Shown piece after piece: positions 28,002 through 59,965 of a DNA stretch of 64,000 bases; position 1 is the stretch's first letter; each line of letters opens with the position of its first letter. The notes below the pieces were generated by a model that ran no database searches, had not been told where the DNA came from, and was given only the letters and a program-made list of their open reading frames with translations. A program made the translations under genes and the position numbers. The stretch is from an uncultured Spirochaetota bacterium (GTDB lineage: Bacteria; Spirochaetota; Spirochaetia; SZUA-6; Fen-1364): contig CAVTHO010000009.1 in assembly GCA_963734545.1 (NCBI GenBank), positions 32,001 to 96,000 on the forward strand, in the 5' to 3' direction.

Positions 28002-29811
28002 CTATCCGATCCTTCAGAATGCCCCTGCGCGCGCCCAGCATCTCGCGGTCAAGCGCAAAGAGGGGACTGATTTCGATCGCGTGGAGGGACTTCCCGTTTC
28101 CGTCCCGGGGTACCTCGACGCCGCACGCCGTGAGCCACCGGGCTGCGCGCTCCACCTGGCCCCGCAGGCAGGTCTCGACCGAGTCGACCCCCTCACGGTT
28201 CTTCAGGGGAGCGAACTCCTCCGCGCGCTCGGTCTCGAAAAACAGGGCGCTTCCCGCTGCGGGGATCGCATCGAATATGAACATCTCCATCTTGACGGCG
28301 TCTCTCTCTACAATTTCGGTCCCTTCCGGGGTGGGATTGAGCACCCTCGCCTTCTTGCGCGCGATGTGCCAGGGAAGCAGCAACGCGGGATTCGCGAGAA
28401 ACGCCACCTCGAGGATGTGTATGGCAATCGAACCCTGGGAGTAGAGAAGCTTCCCATCCGCGCCCCGCGCCTGCATGAGGGCTTCGTCAAGGTCGGAGTA
28501 TTCGATCACGGCCTGCTTCCCGCCCATTGTCACGATGGTCCCGAGCTTCTCCTCCGGATAGGCTTTCTCGATCACCTTGGAGGAGATCCGGGCCCCCTCG
28601 CGGCAGTGGAATCCCAGGAAGCATGGATCCGGCGCGCGTACGAGGGGATTGTCTACCTGCCAGTAGAATAGCTGCTCCACGCCCTGCTGCTGCATGGCTG
28701 CCAGGCTGCCGGAACGGCGCAGGGCGCCGATTACCCCGCCGTGACCGTCGGGATTGACCAGGAGGCCGCCATCAGGCGCCAGGAGCAGCCGTCCATCGGG
28801 TGACAGCGACGGAAGGGAGCCCTGCATGAACAGGCGCACCGTGTCGCACCCGAGCCCGAACCAATCCTGCTTCTCGAAGTATTCCTGGGTTGCGCCGTGA
28901 TTCTGCGGTCCCGTCATGATCAGCCATGGAATATCCACGCCGTACCTGCGCCTGGCGGCAAGAAGGTCTTCAGCGAACCAGGCGAACAGGCTCAAATGGC
29001 GCAGCGGCGTGACTGGAAACATGCCCTTGGGTCCGTCGAATCCGAGCCTCGAGCCCTGTCCGCCTGCCACCGTGAGGAAGGCCGTCCGGCCCCGCCGGAT
29101 GCGATCCTCCCCCAGATCCGCCGCCTCCCGGTCCGTGCTGCTCTGCTGAAGCGATACGTACGGGGCAGGGACAAGGTCCGCAGACCGTACGCCGCGCATT
29201 TCTTCCCGGCGCGGTACGGCGTCCTCGCCGAACGGGTACTCCCGTGCTCCGCGCATTTCCTCCTGCGCGAGCCTTGCGCGGAGCTGCCGGACAAGACCGA
29301 GGTCGAGCGAGGCGAGATCATCGAGAAGCCTTTTTCTCATGTGCTCCGGGCGCGCGGGCCAGTGCGCAAACAAGTGTTCCTGTCCCATCGCGCTGAGCTT
29401 TTCCCTGACATCCCCGCGCGCACCTGAGGGTTTTTCCGTCCGCGCACGTGCGGGTTTTTCTTCCAAGTCTTCCCCCTCACCCACGGAGTTTCCGCCATGC
29501 GCCCGCCGCACGGTCATGAGGGCGTCGATCAGGTCCGCGCGCATCTCGGAGAAGCGCGCGGCCAGGTCCGGGTCAGCCGTGGCACCCAACTCCTCCCACA
29601 ACCTCCCCTTGGCGCCCTCGATCGTGAACTTCTTGTCGTACAGGAGGTGACGGAATCTCATCAGGAGCCGGATCTCGTTTCCCGAATACTCGCGCCGGCC
29701 CGAGAGGCCCTTTCTCGGGGAGAGGAGGGGCAGCTCGCTCTCCCAGTAGCGGATCACGTGCGGCTTCACTCCGAGGAACCGGGCCACCTCCCCGATGCTC
29801 CACGATTTCAT
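27979..29811 (-). CDS. MerR-family HTH domain in frame with UDPGP-family (UAP1-like) nucleotidyltransferase; may be two genes
   Basis: SIGEVA..LGVKPHVIRYWE; AGGQGSRLGFDGPKG, PDGHGG, QVDNP, EYS, KMEMFIFD, EEFAPLKN. Confidence 0.85.
   Translation of the reverse strand: MKSWSIGEVARFLGVKPHVIRYWESELPLLSPRKGLSGRREYSGNEIRLLMRFRHLLYDKKFTIEGAKGRLWEELGATADPDLAARFSEMRADLIDALMTVRRAHGGNSVGEGEDLEEKPARARTEKPSGARGDVREKLSAMGQEHLFAHWPARPEHMRKRLLDDLASLDLGLVRQLRARLAQEEMRGAREYPFGEDAVPRREEMRGVRSADLVPAPYVSLQQSSTDREAADLGEDRIRRGRTAFLTVAGGQGSRLGFDGPKGMFPVTPLRHLSLFAWFAEDLLAARRRYGVDIPWLIMTGPQNHGATQEYFEKQDWFGLGCDTVRLFMQGSLPSLSPDGRLLLAPDGGLLVNPDGHGGVIGALRRSGSLAAMQQQGVEQLFYWQVDNPLVRAPDPCFLGFHCREGARISSKVIEKAYPEEKLGTIVTMGGKQAVIEYSDLDEALMQARGADGKLLYSQGSIAIHILEVAFLANPALLLPWHIARKKARVLNPTPEGTEIVERDAVKMEMFIFDAIPAAGSALFFETERAEEFAPLKNREGVDSVETCLRGQVERAARWLTACGVEVPRDGNGKSLHAIEISPLFALDREMLGARRGILKDRIDEDTLLV
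29185..29265. repeat. TACN-hairpin family: partial unit plus loop-expanded unit, in frame inside the nucleotidyltransferase
   Basis: CCGCGCATTTC at 29192 and 29249 (57 = 27+30); encodes EEMRGAREYPFGEDAVPRREEMRGVR. Confidence 0.85.
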
Positions 29812-33757: not shown

Positions 33758-34640
33758 AAGCTTTCGCACGATCGAGTCCCTCCCGGCCGCATCCTGGCCT
33801 CCGCCGAGACGAAGAAGAAAGAGAAACTCCCTGTTGCCTTTTCTGCCGCGAAGGGGGGACTCCATCGCGTCCTCCACTCCCACACCTTCGTCCGACAGCC
33901 CTGCAATGAGATCCGTGAGAATATCGCGAAGCGCGCCCTTTCCCTGCACGACCCCCCTGAAGTCCCGGGGCGGGCGCCTGTATTCGAACTGCGGCTTGAC
34001 CAGGAAAATTCCGCGTCTCGCCGCGGTGAGCCCCAATATATGCGCTGCTGCCTGGCGGATCGAGCGGAAAGACAGATCTGCCGCCGCGCTGTCGGGAACA
34101 GGATCAAGGTCAAGAGCCCGCACCGTCATGACGTTCGTGGATTCCATCACGCGCACTCTCAGGTCGGCGCGCAGCCGCCAGTCGAGCTGGTTTTCTCCGA
34201 CATCGATTGCGTACACCAGGGATGCGCCGCGGCGCAGCAGGCAATCGGTGAATCCGCCTGTGGAGCTGCCCGGCATCGATCCAGGTCGTTCCCGCGCAGG
34301 CGATTGCCCACAGGTCGAGGCCCGCCGCGAGCTTCTCCCCGCCGCGGGACACGTAGGGCGGCTTCTCGCGGACGCTGATCGCCGCGTCGGCGTGGACAAG
34401 AGTTCCCGGTTTCACGACCTTCTCTCCCCCCACCAGGACTTCCCCGCGGAGGATCTCCGCGAAAAGCTCCTTCTCGTCACGCGACGGGTAGATGGTCTTG
34501 AGCAGGTCGATGAGGCGGACCCTTCGGCGCGGTCCTCCGTGCATTTCTTCTCGGCGCGGTCCTCCGTGCATTTCTTCTCGGCGCGGTACCCCGCGCATTT
34601 CTTCTCGGCGCGGTACGGCGTGCTCGTTGCGCGGTCTCAC
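33746..34640 (-). CDS. tlyA: TlyA family rRNA (cytidine-2'-O)-methyltransferase; +1 frameshift at 34267-34273; repeat-derived N-terminus
   Basis: S4-like domain, YVSRGGEKL, D.GSSTGGFTD, DLSF, LVKPQFE, GNREF. Confidence 0.9.
34524..34634. repeat. TACN-hairpin family: 27-bp tandem units (3 complete plus the start of an expanded unit)
   Basis: TCGGCGCGGT at 34524, 34551, 34578, 34605. Confidence 0.93.
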
Positions 34641-43477: not shown

Positions 43478-43560
43478 CCGACGCGCGGTACGGCGTACTC
43501 GCCGAGCGGGTACACACGCACTCCGCGCATTTGCCCGACGCGCGGTGCACCCCGCGCGCG
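43478..43560. repeat. TACN-hairpin family: loop-expanded unit plus simple unit between rpsM and rpsK
   Basis: CCGACGCGCGGT at 43478 and 43535 (57 = 27+30). Confidence 0.85.
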
Positions 43561-43566
43561 TGTGCT

Positions 43567-43935
43567 CTACTTCTTCCTCTTCCCTGCCACCGTCTTGCGC
43601 TTGCCCTTGCGGGTGCGCGCGTTCGTCTTTGTCCGCTGGCCGCGCACAGGCAGCCCCCTGCGGTGACGGATTCCCCGATAGCATCCAATGTCCATGAGCC
43701 GCTTGATGTTGAGCGAGACCTCCGTGCGCAGACGCCCTTCCACTCGGAAATCACTCTCGATCACGGTCCGCAGCTTGTTCACTTCGTCAGCCGTAAGATC
43801 GTTGATGCGCTTTTCCGGATCGACACCGGTGGTCGCGCAGATCTTCCGTGCCGACGTGCCGCCGATCCCGAAAATGTAGGTCAGGGCGACGTCCACATGT
43901 TTGTTGGGAAGATCTACGCCCGCAATACGTGCCAT
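43567..43935 (-). CDS. rpsM: 30S ribosomal protein S13
   Basis: [27 protein letters not shown]. Confidence 0.97.
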
Positions 43936-43998
43936 TCCTTCCTCCTCCTAAAATGCGCCTGGCATTTGCCGCGCTCGCGCGGCATGCCAGTCGCTGCC

Positions 43999-46687: not shown

Positions 46688-46742
46688 GAACGGGTACGGC
46701 CTTCGGGCCGAGCGCGTACTCGCGCACTCCCGTTGTCCGCGT
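46688..46742. repeat. TACN-hairpin family: second-level expanded module between rplR and rpsE
   Basis: ACGGG-TAC-[GGCC TTCG GGCC]-GA-[GCGCG TACT CGCGC]-ACT-CCCGT. Confidence 0.85.
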
Positions 46743-53137: not shown

Positions 53138-53506
53138 TTAGACGCCCTCGAAGATGGCGATCTTTTCCTCAGGGGCGATCGTGATGATCGCCTTCTTCCA
53201 GGACGCGGTATAGCCGAGCCTGTAGCGCACCCTCTTGGGCTTTGTCGCCGTCTTCAGCACGTTACACTTGAGGGGATGCACGTTGTAGAGCTTGCGCACA
53301 GCGTCCATGATCTGGTACTTGTTCGCCCGGCTGTCCACCTTGAACACGTACTTGTGGCTTTCCCGCATCACGTTCGTCTTCTCGGTCACCACCGGCTCGA
53401 TGACGATTCTCTCGATCCGGTGCGGTACGCCGTGCGTTTCCGGCTGGCGCGGTACTCCGCGCGTTTCTGGCCGGCGCGGTACTCCGCGCATTTCTTCTGG
53501 CGTCAT
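53138..53506 (-). CDS. rplW: 50S ribosomal protein L23 with repeat-derived N-terminal extension
   Basis: [20 protein letters not shown]; ATG overlaps the rplD stop (ATGA). Confidence 0.95.
53417..53500. repeat. TACN-hairpin family: three 27-bp units inside the 5' end of rplW
   Basis: CGGTAC at 53423, 53450, 53477; the last unit GCGCGG-TACT-CCGCGC-ATTTCTTCT matches the tlyA units. Confidence 0.93.
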
Positions 53507-55423: not shown

Positions 55424-56617
55424 CTACTCAATGATGTCCGTTACCTGTCCTGCCCCGACCGTCTTGCCGCCTTCCCGGATGGCGAACTGAAGCCCCTTGT
55501 CCATGGCGATGGGGTAGATCAGCTCGACAGCGAGATCGGTGATATGGTCGCCGGGCATGACCATCTGCTTGCCTTCGGGCAGCGTGACGGACGCCGTGAC
55601 GTCCGTGGTGCGGAAGTAGAACTGGGGCCGGTATCCCGTAAAGAACGGAGAGTGCCGCCCGCCCTCTTCCTTGGTCAGCGCCACGACGGTGCACTTGAAC
55701 TTCTTGTGCGGCGTGATCGAGCCCGGCTTGGCAAGGACCTGTCCGCGCTCGACGTCGTCTTTTTCTATGCCGCGCAGAAGGGTGCCGATATTGTCGCCCG
55801 CCTGCCCCTCGTCCAGAAGCTTGTTGAACATTTCGACACCGGTCACGACCGTCTTGCGCGTGTCCTTGATGCCGACGATTTCGCATTCGTCTCCGACATG
55901 CACGACACCCGTTGCCACGCGTCCGGTGACCACGGTTCCGCGTCCGGAAATGGAGAACACGTCTTCGATGGGCATCAGGTACGGCTTGTCAACCGGTCGC
56001 GGCGGAATGGGGAAATACTCGTCCATCGTGGTGAGAAGCTCCTCGATGCACTTGGTGTTCTCCGCCACCTCGGGATGCTCCATTGCCTTGAGCGCCGAGC
56101 CCTTGATGATGGGGATCTTGTCGCCGGGGAAGTTGTAGAATTTCAGGACGTCCCGAATCTCCACCTCGACCAGCTCGATGAGCTCCTTGTCGTCCACCAT
56201 GTCGATCTTGTTCAGGAATACGACGATGGCGGGCACACCGACCTGCCGGGCCAGGAGAATGTGCTCCCGGGTCTGCGGCATCACGGAATCAGGCGCGGAC
56301 ACGACGAGCACGGCACCGTCCATCTGGGCGGCTCCCGTGATCATGTTCTTTATATAGTCCGCATGCCCCGGGCAGTCGATGTGGGCATAGTGGCGCTTTT
56401 CCGACTGGTACTCCACATGCCGGGTGTTGATGGTGATCCCCCTCGCCTTCTCTTCGGGGGCATTATCGATGTCCTCATACTTCATCAGCTTGTCGCCGTA
56501 CTTCTTCGCGCAGTACATGGTGATCGCAGCCGTGAGCGTGGTCTTGCCGTGGTCGATGTGACCGATGGTGCCCACATTGATATGAGGCTTCGACCGGACA
56601 AATTTCTCCTTCGCCAT
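55424..56617 (-). CDS. tuf: Elongation factor Tu
   Basis: [26 protein letters not shown]. Confidence 0.98.
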
Positions 56618-56658: not shown

Positions 56659-56815
56659 GCGCGGTACCCCGCGCCTTTTTTTCCTGTGCGCGGTACCTTG
56701 CACGGTAACCCGTGCAGTTTCGCGCTTTTTTCCCCACCGCAGTACGGCGTACCCGCTACACGGGTACGGCCTCCGGGCCGAGCGCGTGCTCGCGCACTCC
56801 CGTCCTCCGCGCTTC
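56659..56815. repeat. TACN-hairpin family: simple, singly nested and doubly nested units between fusA and tuf
   Basis: GCGCGG-TACC-CCGCGC; GCGCGG-TACC[TGCACGG-TAAC-CCGTGCA]..CGCGC; TAC[hp]..[ACGGG-TAC[hp]GA[hp]ACT-CCCGT]..CCGCGC. Confidence 0.85.
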
Positions 56816-56846: not shown

Positions 56847-58934
56847 CTATTTTTTCGAGCCGCGGGTCTTGGTCACAAGCTCTTCCTGGATCGATCGAGG
56901 GGTGTCCTGGTAATGGGAGAATTGCATGGTGTGTGACGCGCGCCCCTTGGTCATGGAACGCAGCGTCGTCACGTACCCGAACATGGAACGCAAGGGTACG
57001 AGGGCTTTCACCACCTTACTCCCAGGCCGATCTTCGATTCCCTCTACGTGGCCCATTCGCGCGCCGAAGTCCGAGATGACATCCCCGAGGTGCTCCTCGG
57101 GAGTCGCGCACTCCACGGCCATGATCGGTTCAAGGATAGTCGGTTTGGCTTTTGCACAGCCCGACTTGTATGCCATCGATGCCGCCACTTTGAAGGCCAT
57201 TTCGCTGGAGTCCACGTCATGGTAGGACCCGTCCAGCAGCGATGCCCGGAAGTCCACCATCGGGTAGCCTCCCAGCACCCCGTTTTCCATGGCTTCCTTG
57301 ATGCCCTTCTCCACCGCGGGAACATATTCCCGCGGCACGCGGCCGCCGATGACCTTGTTCTCGAAAATGAACCCCGTTCCGGCAGGGAGAGGCTCGAAGC
57401 TCATGATCACGTGCCCATAGGCCCCGTGGCCGCCGGTCTGCTTCACGAACTTGCCCTCCGCCTCGGCGCTGGCCCGGATGGTTTCGCGGTAGGCAACCTC
57501 GGGTGTTCCGACGTTCGCCCCCACGTTGAACTCGCGGAACATCCGTTCCACGAGGACCTCCAGGTGCAGCTCGCCCATGCCCCAGATGATCGTCTGGCCC
57601 GTTTCCTTGTCGAAACGCACCTTGAACGTCGGGTCCTCCTCCGAGAGCTTGTGCAGGGCCGAGGAGAGCTTCTCCTCGTCTTCCCTGGTCTTCGGCTCGA
57701 TGGAGACGGAAACAACCGGGTCGGGAAAGACCATGGATTCCAGGATGACCTGCCGCTCTTCGTCGCACAGCGTGTCACCCGTGGTGGTCTTTTTCAGACC
57801 CACGGCTGCCGCGATGTCACCCGGATAAACGGCCTTGATCTCTTCCCGCTCGTTCGCGTGCATCCTCAGTATCCGTGTCACCCGCTCCCGCCTGTCAGCG
57901 GTCGAGTTGTAGATGTACGACCCCGCCGTCAGCGTTCCCGAATACACACGGATGAAAGTCAGCTTCCCCACAAAGGGGTCCGTCATGATCTTGAATGCAA
58001 GCGCCGCGAAAGGCTCGTCATCCCTGGGAAAGCGCTGGATATAGTCCCCGCTGCTGGGGACCGTTCCCATGGTCGGCGGAACGTCCGCCGGCGAGGGAAG
58101 GTAGTCCACGACTGCGTCAAGAAGAGGCTGGATGCCCTTGTTCTTGAATGCGCTTCCGCACACGACAGGGAATATCCTGCCGCTCACCGTGGCTGTCCGC
58201 AGGGCCGTTCTGATGGCATCTTCGCCGATTTCTTTGCCGTCGACGTAGTCCGCCATCATTGCGTCGTCCGTCTCTGCCAGCTTCTCCACCATCGTAGCCC
58301 GCGCCGCTTGGGCGGCTTTCATGACCTTGGCGGGGATCTCCACCTCACGGAATTGCGCCCCGAGAACGTCTTCGTCCCAGATCAATCCGCGCATCCGGAC
58401 CAGGTCCACCAGCCCGGCAAAATCCCCCTCGATTCCGATGGGAACCTGTATGGCGACCGCGTTTGCCCCGAGCTTGGCGTGCATTTCCTCCACGACTTCC
58501 TCGAAGCGCGCTCCGGTCCTGTCCATCTTGTTGATGAACGCCACACGGGGGACGTTGTATCGGTTGGCCTGCTTCCAGACCGTCTCGCTCTGAGGCTCGA
58601 CGCCTTCGACGGCCGAGAAAACCCCGATTGCTCCGTCCAAAACTCTCAAAGAACGTTCCACTTCGACAGTAAAGTCGACGTGTCCCGGCGTGTCGATGAT
58701 GTTGATCTGCACGCCGCGCCATTCACAGAAGGTCGCGGCCGCCGTGATGGTGATGCCGCGCTCCTTCTCCAGATCCATCCAGTCCATCTTGGCTTCGCCA
58801 TCATGGACTTCACCGATCTTGTGTGTCCTGCCGGTATAGTACAAAACCCGTTCTGTCGTCGTCGTCTTACCGGCGTCAATATGGGCCATTATCCCGATAT
58901 TGCGTGTCGACGACAGGGGATACCGCGATTCCAT
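56847..58934 (-). CDS. fusA: Elongation factor G
   Basis: [45 protein letters not shown]. Confidence 0.98.
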
Positions 58935-59899: not shown

Positions 59900-59965
59900 G
59901 ACGGCGTTCGCGCCGAACGGGTACAGCCTCACGCCGAGCGCGTACTCGCCCACTCCCGCAGCGTA
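59900..59965. repeat. TACN-hairpin family: doubly nested, decayed copy in the rpsL leader
   Basis: [GGCG TTCG CGCC]GA[ACGGG-TAC..GCC-GA-GCGCG TACT CGCCC-ACT-CCCG]. Confidence 0.8.

Follow-up and report, generated by a model that had tools for sequence, protein, structure and literature searches.

A 30-nucleotide double-hairpin unit in the loops of its own repeat family in an uncultured Spirochaetota bacterium

The stretch analysed here, which we call the window, comprises 64,000 nucleotides (nt) from an uncultured Spirochaetota bacterium (assembly GCA_963734545.1, contig CAVTHO010000009.1, positions 32,001 to 96,000, forward strand). It contains short GC-rich hairpins with a TACT loop, and in the loops of some of them sits a 30-nt unit that is itself made of two hairpins. 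The genome to which it belongs measures 5.14 Mb in 10 contigs, has 62-65% G+C and is 89% complete. Among the closest described repeats in bacteria are REPs (repetitive extragenic palindromes) and REPINs, which are short palindromic, high-copy, mostly extragenic and associated with REP-associated tyrosine transposases (RAYTs), as set out in the available parts of PMC3116915, PMC2817692 and PMC3333891; according to the available part of PMC3733652, REPs bear a conserved GTAG or CGTC tetranucleotide at one palindrome end. The repeats of this genome resemble the REP/REPIN-RAYT systems in being short GC-rich hairpins of high copy number that lie mostly between genes, occur in clusters and keep their pairing by compensatory changes. 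They differ in that 193 hairpins examined here carry neither a GTAG/CGTC tag nor a 5' tag, and conserve instead the loop core GTACT and a 3' ATT. Their arrays are direct tandems, not alternating or inverted doublets. No RAYT was found in this 89% complete genome, its only Y1 transposase gene scoring 35.3 bits against a RAYT cut-off of 80; Y1 genes do not co-occur with the units, and the literature searched makes no mention of units nested in one another's loops.

Other described systems share single features with these repeats. Insertion sequences (IS) that target REPs (IS1397, ISKpn1, IS621, ISPpu9/10) show that mobile DNA can pick a repeated palindrome as its target, and differ, as far as the available part of PMC1525189 describes them, in being 1-2 kb long with a transposase of their own (IS3, IS110 and other families), whereas the unit here is 30 nt, non-coding and a member of its target's own family. 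Rickettsia palindromic elements lie in frame in protein genes and add peptide segments (PMC10969869, in the part available); they are about 150 bp long, belong to other bacteria and are not reported there to nest, and the copies here are mostly intergenic, so that the likeness is one of behaviour and we claim no family membership. The double-hairpin elements and GC clusters of mitochondria, such as yeast GC42, and repetitive hairpin-forming elements are likewise tens of nt long and GC-rich with one or two hairpins, and share a short target motif, tandem or merged copies, presence or absence between strains and an unknown mechanism (available parts of PMC4478555 and PMC2800124). They occur in fungal and sponge organelle genomes, GC42 is flanked by a duplicated AG, and we liken them by their description only. 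Bacterial hairpin repeats nested in each other's loops were not found described in the literature lying outside subscription journals and supplements, and the word "nested" is absent from the texts of PMC4478555, PMC2800124, PMC10969869 and PMC12306157.

Transposable elements of the miniature inverted-repeat type (MITEs), which have terminal inverted repeats, a target site duplication and a related full-length IS, differ from the unit, whose ends share only ACGG/CCGT and which has no consistent target duplication; a noisy search for a pair of half-sites around a gene found none. The defining features of REP/RAYT and MITEs were looked for: short, GC-rich, high-copy extragenic palindromes are present, and the remaining features were not found. 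IS200/IS605 elements insert beside a short single-stranded motif without duplicating their target, have hairpins at their ends and can be removed seamlessly. Junctions without target duplication and hairpins near both ends recall this "peel and paste" mode; the differences are that Y1 does not co-occur with the units, that no lagging-strand bias was seen where the GC skew could be called and that the moved piece is far shorter than in described members. We regard the repeats as REP/MITE-like small selfish palindromic units with an unusual self-nesting habit.

The 30-nt unit and its nesting

Hairpins of the form stem-TACT-stem fill the intergenic DNA of the genome, and the 30-nt unit sits in their loops. 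The plain (level-0) repeat is a GC-rich hairpin. Its 4-nt loop and the letters next to the loop conserve the core (G)GTACT(C)C, ATT follows just 3' of the hairpin, and the repeat often forms direct tandem arrays with a period of 22-31 nt. A 16-mer of the repeat (up to two mismatches) occurs six times in the window against 0.14 expected, a number that none of 100 shuffles reached. Perfect hairpins with a stem of at least 5 bp number 113 with TACT and 80 with AGTA in the whole genome (193 in all), against 4-37 for each of the other 11 orderings of the same loop letters. Their stems are few in type yet differ (GCGCGG, CCGCGG, CCACGG, GCACGG, CGCCG, ACGGG), and what stays conserved is the loop and the 3' ATT, matched by the 193 hairpins at A in 124, at the first T in 104 and at the second T in 114 cases. 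The 30-nt unit consists of an A and a 14-nt hairpin, twice over, and can also be written ACGGCG TACT CGCC GA ACGGG TACT CCCGT. It occurs in these types:

Type A: A CGGCG TACT CGCCG, A ACGGG TACT CCCGT.
Type B: A CGGCC TTCG GGCCG, A GCGCG TACT CGCGC.
Type C: same layout as A and B, with CGCG and ACGCG stems; minor types were also seen.

A hairpin with one such unit in its loop is called level 1, and one with a unit inside a unit level 2. The interior of the pattern S-TAC-n-ACT-S', where S and S' pair, peaks at a length of n=28 (18 cases). Perfect three-way junctions, in which an outer stem encloses two hairpins set 2 nt apart and each 3 nt from the stem, occur 20 times in the whole genome; 19 carry the letters TAC/GA/ACT or their complement, and one of the 20 is a perfect two-level nest (C7:383630-383705, where C7 is a contig). 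When all 2398 double-hairpin positions were tallied by their junction letters, AC/GA/A came top of 1024 combinations with 57, followed by 40 and 19, which are the same units on the other strand, and then by 14, with a median of 2.

We also parsed the genome by the grammar that the first-pass annotation had proposed as a check, in a peeling test that finds 30-mers (at most one stem mismatch, then A), excises them and repeats the search. This gave 64 units, 57 in round one and seven that became visible only after an inner unit had been excised; two of them (C3:456791 and C7:887004) were dropped as not of the family, leaving 62. The reversed-sequence control of this test gave 19 hits that are unaccounted for, and we rely on the all-junction-letter tally instead. 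When exactly 30 nt were excised in silico, 48 of the 62 units (A-like 31/44, B 12/12, C 5/6) left behind a loop of 4 nt with at least 4 bp closing it, which bears out the view that the long form is the short form plus discrete 30-nt units in its loop. Among the 31 A-like units, 17 lie forward and 10 reversed in TACT-type loops, and four lie in GGGA-type loops of another repeat. The outer stems whose loops host A units are of at least eight kinds, and the units lie in them either way round. The hosts of the B units are all 12 of the ACGG..CCGT type, with ACGGG in most.

Two-level nests, in which B lies within the ACGGG hairpin of A, number eight: seven, and a degenerate eighth in the window at 56738-56811 that was too degenerate for a second peeling round and is counted in addition. 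Variants of A and B mix, stems GGGG or GGCG occurring with GCGCG or GCGGG in all four pairs, and such free mixing fits repeated events better than clonal spread of one composite. The peeling test found 25 units in 466 kb of a relative (22+3 by round) and 93 units in 72 stretches of metagenome contigs totalling 433 kb (89+4), where 52 of the 90 units scored regain a loop. Nesting deeper than two units, that is three hairpin levels, was found neither in this genome nor in these two further samples, and the "fractal" growth proposed in the first-pass annotation is therefore too strong a term.

A second repeat, with a GGGA loop, lies outside the window and is about 75 nt long. It begins with the hairpin TCCGCGG-TACT-CCGCGGA, continues with GTTGGATGGCGAGGGCGAGCGAG and a hairpin TCCA-GGGA-TGGA, and is often arranged head to tail (for example C7:158174-158326, C5:237916-238080 and C7:943435-943600). 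We estimate about 30 copies among the 45 motif matches listed. The 30-nt unit is found repeatedly at its junction GTTGG|A and in its GGGA loop.

Exact block differences between species, junctions and gene context

A 66-kb contig (C1) of a relative, G014, is collinear with the region of the window at 86-95% identity, and at the repeat loci of the window entire units are present in one genome and missing in the other. Across 421,505 aligned columns and at single loci, orthologous sites of the two genomes differ by exactly 30 or 60 nt. The hairpins ACGGG-TGCT-CCCGT at C5:261794 and ACGGG-TAAC-CCCGT at C5:195809 are plain here, and in G014 each carries the 30 nt of B. At C5:282069, the plain hairpin CCGCCG-TACC-CGGTGG of G014 corresponds to one with 60 nt more (B nested in A, written A::B) in this genome, and three further relatives (G002, G012, G006) are without the hairpin. 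The non-hairpin site GAGTTGG|ACGCC holds a 60-nt A::B in G014 and is empty here, and at C4:40859 the A unit lies in opposite orientations in this genome and in G014. Arrays gain or lose entire units as well, as with an additional 57-nt level-1 unit that stands after the first hairpin and before the second in G014's fusA-tuf spacer (genes named putatively, see below) and five extra 24-nt units at C7:383 kb. Our firm conclusion is therefore limited to this: discrete 30-nt units come and go as exact blocks, and do so at a short motif shown by the loops of their own family.

A 30-nt block placed between G(T/G) and A(C/T), written G(T/G)|A(C/T), fits all junctions, and the target is not consistently duplicated. 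As GTAC is palindromic, this rule also accounts for both orientations. The apparent duplication of the loop's AC, noted in the first-pass annotation, is one valid description of the junction among several equivalent ones; a duplication of TA or GTAC is ruled out by the junctions GG|AC and GG|AT. A units also occur at non-hairpin sites that share 1-2 nt with the usual flanks (GG|AC, GG|AT, CT|AC). In tandem junctions of the form h2-AC-h1, a permuted single copy was found in none of six, the break lying always at the same linker, and head-to-tail tandems of the 30-nt unit comprise three copies in G020 and two in G003. A model of religated GT|AC blunt restriction fragments was considered and set aside as not general: GTAC, with 13,370 occurrences and an observed/expected ratio of 0.92, is not avoided, and B ends in GC.

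The distribution of the units among relatives becomes narrower from the outside in. Of 25 genomes of the family, 14 have at least 10 plain CGCGG-TAYY-CCGCG hairpins each, and five of these lack the A unit (G001 with 35 hairpins, G011 with 28, G019 with 33, G017 with 25 and G005 with 23). The A 30-mer (up to three mismatches) occurs in 16 of the 25, with 40 copies here, 61 in G014, 50 in G002, 22 in G020, 21 in G012 and 17 in G006, and no hits in the reversed control. The identical 30-mer is present in many species of the genus, in unrelated flanks across the eight genomes examined for it, and once exactly in another genus; it is absent from a viral contig collection. The exact 44-mer of B in its ACGGG hairpin was found in only two other genomes, both metagenome-assembled genomes (MAGs), among 185,579 species; with up to three mismatches, it counts 13 here and, among 40 relatives, 11 in G002, 16 in G014 and one in G020. 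B is hence known from three species and one variant copy with three mismatches in G020, inside a far wider A, so that the innermost unit is the most restricted. This ordering fits outside-in growth and not the decay of one long ancestor. Since the same units recur in other genomes of the genus and in the 72 stretches of metagenome contigs, the repeats are not an assembly artefact.

Three loci in relatives deserve separate mention. In G008 (C29:125740-125970), an A unit lies within the ACGCG hairpin of a C unit and is followed by a second C unit. A tangled stack in G003 (C14:141300-141580) resisted parsing by eye and may exceed two levels. An exact A unit in G020 (C29:5530-5770) stands directly 5' of a putative tRNA gene (GCCGCTGTAGCTCAGACGGTAGAGC..., judged by eye).

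A test of the codon usage of both flanks placed 22 of 143 loci in frame within an open reading frame (ORF), against 435 of 1000 random sites, the latter figure also showing how conservative the test is in calling a site coding; at least one non-coding flank was found at 90 of the 143. Few loci thus read through ORFs, which makes the repeat family mainly intergenic. An earlier count by a crude ORF caller (131 of 193 hairpins in ORFs) was discarded because ORFs run through the stop-free repeats. Together with 6-nt flanks, 58 of 64 units are free of stops in all six frames, compared with 1057 of 5000 random 42-mers, and with a length of 30 nt they can persist in genes as 10-residue insertions. 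Two loci are clearly in frame inside genes, a FAD_binding_6 oxidoreductase and a HisKA_3 kinase; in the kinase, the HATPase_c match spans the insert, residues 107-246 covering 106 profile positions. Length differences between species at these two loci are 69, 105, 57 and 117 nt, all multiples of 3. The earlier remark that growth keeps reading frames open therefore holds for the 30-nt unit and fails for arrays: the 27-nt period it presumed is not general, genome-wide array periods being 22, 23, 24, 26, 27 and 31 nt, and 22, 23, 26 and 31 are not multiples of 3.

How the units may spread

We lean, as somewhat the more probable reading, towards a very small mobile palindromic unit that inserts at G(T/G)|A(C/T), mostly in the loops of its own family. 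Most likely, the gain and loss of blocks is the work of a trans-acting activity whose substrate is hairpin DNA, single-stranded or extruded. In this inferred scheme of active insertion, a trans-acting protein would add the 30-nt dimer to DNA, or cut it out, as an exact block at the G(T/G)|A(C/T) motif. Because the loops of the family display this motif in their GT|AC, units would land in one another's hairpins and create three-way junctions, and a B unit entering the ACGGG hairpin of A would produce the second level of nesting. Self-targeting, as the first-pass annotation had put it, describes most units, which do lie in loops of the family, and leaves aside the 14 of 62 that lie outside hairpin loops.

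Several observations weigh against mobility of this kind. Gene searches identified no enzyme. The HUH nuclease suggested earlier finds support neither in gene co-occurrence nor in strand bias. The genome has a single copy of a Y1 transposase (PF01797; 160 aa, C4:159408-160100), which scores 145.6 bits with the IS200 model and is flanked by CCACCGCC-N3-GGCGGTGG hairpins that occur genome-wide only at its own two ends, the downstream one followed by ATT as in the repeats; it is an ordinary IS200 with hairpins of its own. PF01797 occurs in 12 of 21 genomes of the genus. In this comparison of MAGs that are 78-97% complete, no PF01797 gene turned up in G002 (50 A units, completeness 96%), G012 (21, 97%), G020 (22, 78%) or G006 (17, 97%), and the family is present in G017, G011 and G019, all without an A copy. 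A Y1 (HUH) transposase is thus not supported, as four relatives that rank among the richest in units showed none. Orientation relative to GC skew shows no bias (46 against 40 hairpins and 15 against 12 units), the skew being below 0.01 and too weak to call at a further 107 hairpins and 37 units. A permissive search for a longer element bearing the two hairpins of the unit at its ends gave chance pairs and no such element.

The comparative evidence has limits of its own that count on the same side. All presence/absence pairs are between species and none within a population; the 30/60-nt differences are symmetrical and fit insertion and precise excision alike; and in three cases the outgroups are also without the host hairpin. 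Junction specificity of only 1-2 nt equally fits copying by microhomology. That the 30-mer is identical across species could be due to selection for a function and not to mobility. Units outside hairpin loops amount to 14 of 62 here and to 38 of 90 in the metagenome stretches, the preference for loops may look stronger than it is if insertions have been purged from genes, and nesting ends at two units.

The main rival dispenses with an enzyme. Units would pass from one scattered hairpin to another through copy-choice (template switching) or short-patch conversion while DNA is replicated or breaks induced by hairpins are repaired, with microhomology supplied by the loop core GGT..ACTCC or, for B, by ACGGGT..ACTCCCGT. 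The lack of a target duplication and of any transposase correlate agrees with it, arrays gain and lose entire units, and the differences between A and A::B at orthologous sites are, like the free mixing of A and B variants, what conversion predicts. Copy-choice accounts well for B, whose identical flanks are long: all 12 copies lie in ACGG..CCGT-type hairpins, which offer 6-8 nt of identity on each side. It fits A poorly, since A occurs in at least eight outer stems and at non-hairpin sites whose flanks match over 1-2 nt, in both orientations, with a fixed break point at six of six tandem junctions; the exact 30-mer is moreover kept in many species. As an account of the whole family we consider it unlikely, and prefer mobility of the unit.

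A functional structured RNA or single-stranded DNA motif, kept as a three-way junction by selection while its arms come and go and nothing moves, seems to us a distinctly slim prospect. Stem pairing is preserved by changes on both sides at six of nine stem positions, and the first-hairpin loop is TTCG or TCCG in 24 of 62 units, a type that on the plus strand would form stable RNA tetraloops. The nested copy at 56738-56811 folds more stably than its shuffles (z -2.66 as DNA; z -3.42 as RNA of the minus strand, where the nested hairpins are recovered), and loci between or inside same-strand genes have AGTA on the sense strand in 32 cases and TACT in 14. Against selection on one structure, Rfam 15 gave no match at the repeats in window 28000-62000 with E up to 1, both orientations occur within one kind of outer hairpin, and units are found in frame in genes, as tandem multimers and at unrelated sites. 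Their relation to neighbouring genes is not fixed, and orthologous sites are highly unstable, the fusA-tuf spacer measuring 116 to 324 nt between anchors in 16 genomes.

The least credible explanation, and one already disfavoured, is a single long ancestor from which every short form has come by deletion; the first-pass annotation had named this as a case that would undo its reading. The precise 30/60-nt differences are symmetrical in direction, G002 retains at one site only the left arm AATCCGCGG as after a loss, and one level-1 unit of the window (34608-34626) is truncated, but plain hairpins outnumber composites by 193 to 62 and abound in genomes without any A unit, B is limited to three species and the variant in G020, and the same unit sits in both orientations in many unrelated hosts, each of which would need a long ancestor of its own.

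If the unit does move, it would rank with the smallest of known bacterial mobile DNAs and be a case in which the loop of an element is its own target. More tentatively, and with less confidence than in mobility as such, we raise the possibility of a class of mobile DNA undescribed in bacteria: a double hairpin of 30 nt and without genes, which a host-encoded activity other than Y1 would move in exact blocks, probably in single-stranded form, and which would insert at a 2-4-nt motif in loops including its own and so build self-similar nests and 10-residue protein segments. The family would offer a natural system for the recognition and cutting of hairpin DNA in vivo without a RAYT. It bears on the rapid change in length of intergenic spacers between species, even in ribosomal protein and elongation factor operons, and its stop-free repeats, 3n long, can be a source of new peptide loops within enzymes and sensor kinases. 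For annotation it carries a warning, as ORFs can run through such arrays by construction.

Repeat loci of the window

The nested repeats to which the window owes its level-2 copy lie in a 229-nt spacer bounded by two minus-strand ORFs:

55424-56617, minus strand: ORF of 397 aa, conserved in 16 genomes of the genus; from gene order and its translated start we take it to be tuf (elongation factor Tu).
56659-56674, plus strand: level-0 hairpin GCGCGG-TACC-CCGCGC, with a T run directly after it.
56688-56725, plus strand: outer GCGCGG..(T)CGCGC hairpin whose loop carries the 22-nt insert CT-[TGCACGG TAAC CCGTGCA]-GT.
56738-56811, plus strand: level-2 composite with a degenerate outer stem CGCAG..(C)CGCG around a degenerate A unit.
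56847-58934, minus strand: ORF of 695 aa, 3' end conserved in the genus; presumably fusA (elongation factor G), from gene order and its translated end.

All strings described in the first-pass annotation are present in the window where it had placed them. The loop of the first hairpin, TACC here, is TACT in G014. The second holds, as had been noted, a different hairpin in its loop (TGCACGG-TAAC-CCGTGCA, 56699-56716), a nested form that G014 shares; TGCACGG hairpins number 12 genome-wide, and by eye about eight of those listed are nested, in at least four kinds of outer stem. In the composite, the first hairpin is GGCG-TACC-CGCT (56746-56757) and the linker reads AC in place of GA. The ACGGG..CCCGT hairpin at 56760-56803 encloses a 30-nt B unit in its loop (56766-56795), which reads GGCC-TCCG-GGCC-GA-GCGCG-TGCT-CGCGC. 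G014 has an unrelated palindrome at this spot, and a search of the metagenome contigs for filled and empty alleles of the 56760-56803 site found none. No sequencing run contained more than 0.48 of the sampled words, and four of them gave only short contigs over the spacer, which neither back nor question the nested parts. In most of the 16 genomes compared above, species-specific hairpins of this kind fill the fusA-tuf spacer.

The T runs after the spacer hairpins, CTTTTTTTCC at 56675-56687 and CTTTTTTCCCC at 56726-56737, lie on the plus strand. As the operon is on the minus strand, hairpins and T runs resemble terminators of antisense transcription. A metagenome contig of run X2 has an extra 29-nt level-0 unit behind 56652, the same as in G014, which suggests copy-number variants of the units in natural populations.

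The window holds six further repeat loci:

29209-29254, plus strand: level-1 unit GCGCGG-TAC-[GGCG TCCT CGCC]-GA-[ACGGG TACT CCCGT]-GCT-CCGCGC; the entire unit is missing at the orthologous site of G014.
34527-34626, plus strand: tandem array of 27-nt period, with three level-0 units and a truncated level-1 unit.
43483-43557, plus strand: level-1 unit (43483-43528), then a level-0 variant hairpin (43540-43557).
46689-46734, plus strand: B unit in a free ACGGG hairpin, AACGGG-TAC-[GGCC TTCG GGCC]-GA-[GCGCG TACT CGCGC]-ACT-CCCGTT.
53420-53489, plus strand: array of three level-0 units of 27-nt period, all three missing in G014.
59901-59959, plus strand: degenerate 59-nt A::B composite without an outer hairpin, missing in G014.

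Two of these loci had been listed as level 2 alongside 56738-56811. That assignment stands for 56738-56811, and for the free ACGGG hairpin at 46689-46734 and the degenerate A::B at 59901-59959 it does not, as neither has the outer GCGCGG hairpin. At the site of 46689-46734, G014 has a level-0 unit and a GCGCGG level-1 unit, and in place of the array at 34527-34626 it has one intact level-1 unit. The hairpin at 43540 starts 57 nt after the start of the unit at 43483, and G014 retains only this second hairpin. We take the ORFs on either side of 59901-59959 to be rpsL and rpoC, and the surroundings of 53420-53489 to be an S10-type ribosomal protein gene cluster, all of these being putative names. 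A weak Rfam match to Alpha_RBS at 43903-43997 on the minus strand (26.3 bits, below the gathering score of 38; E 0.027) falls in the ribosomal protein gene region.

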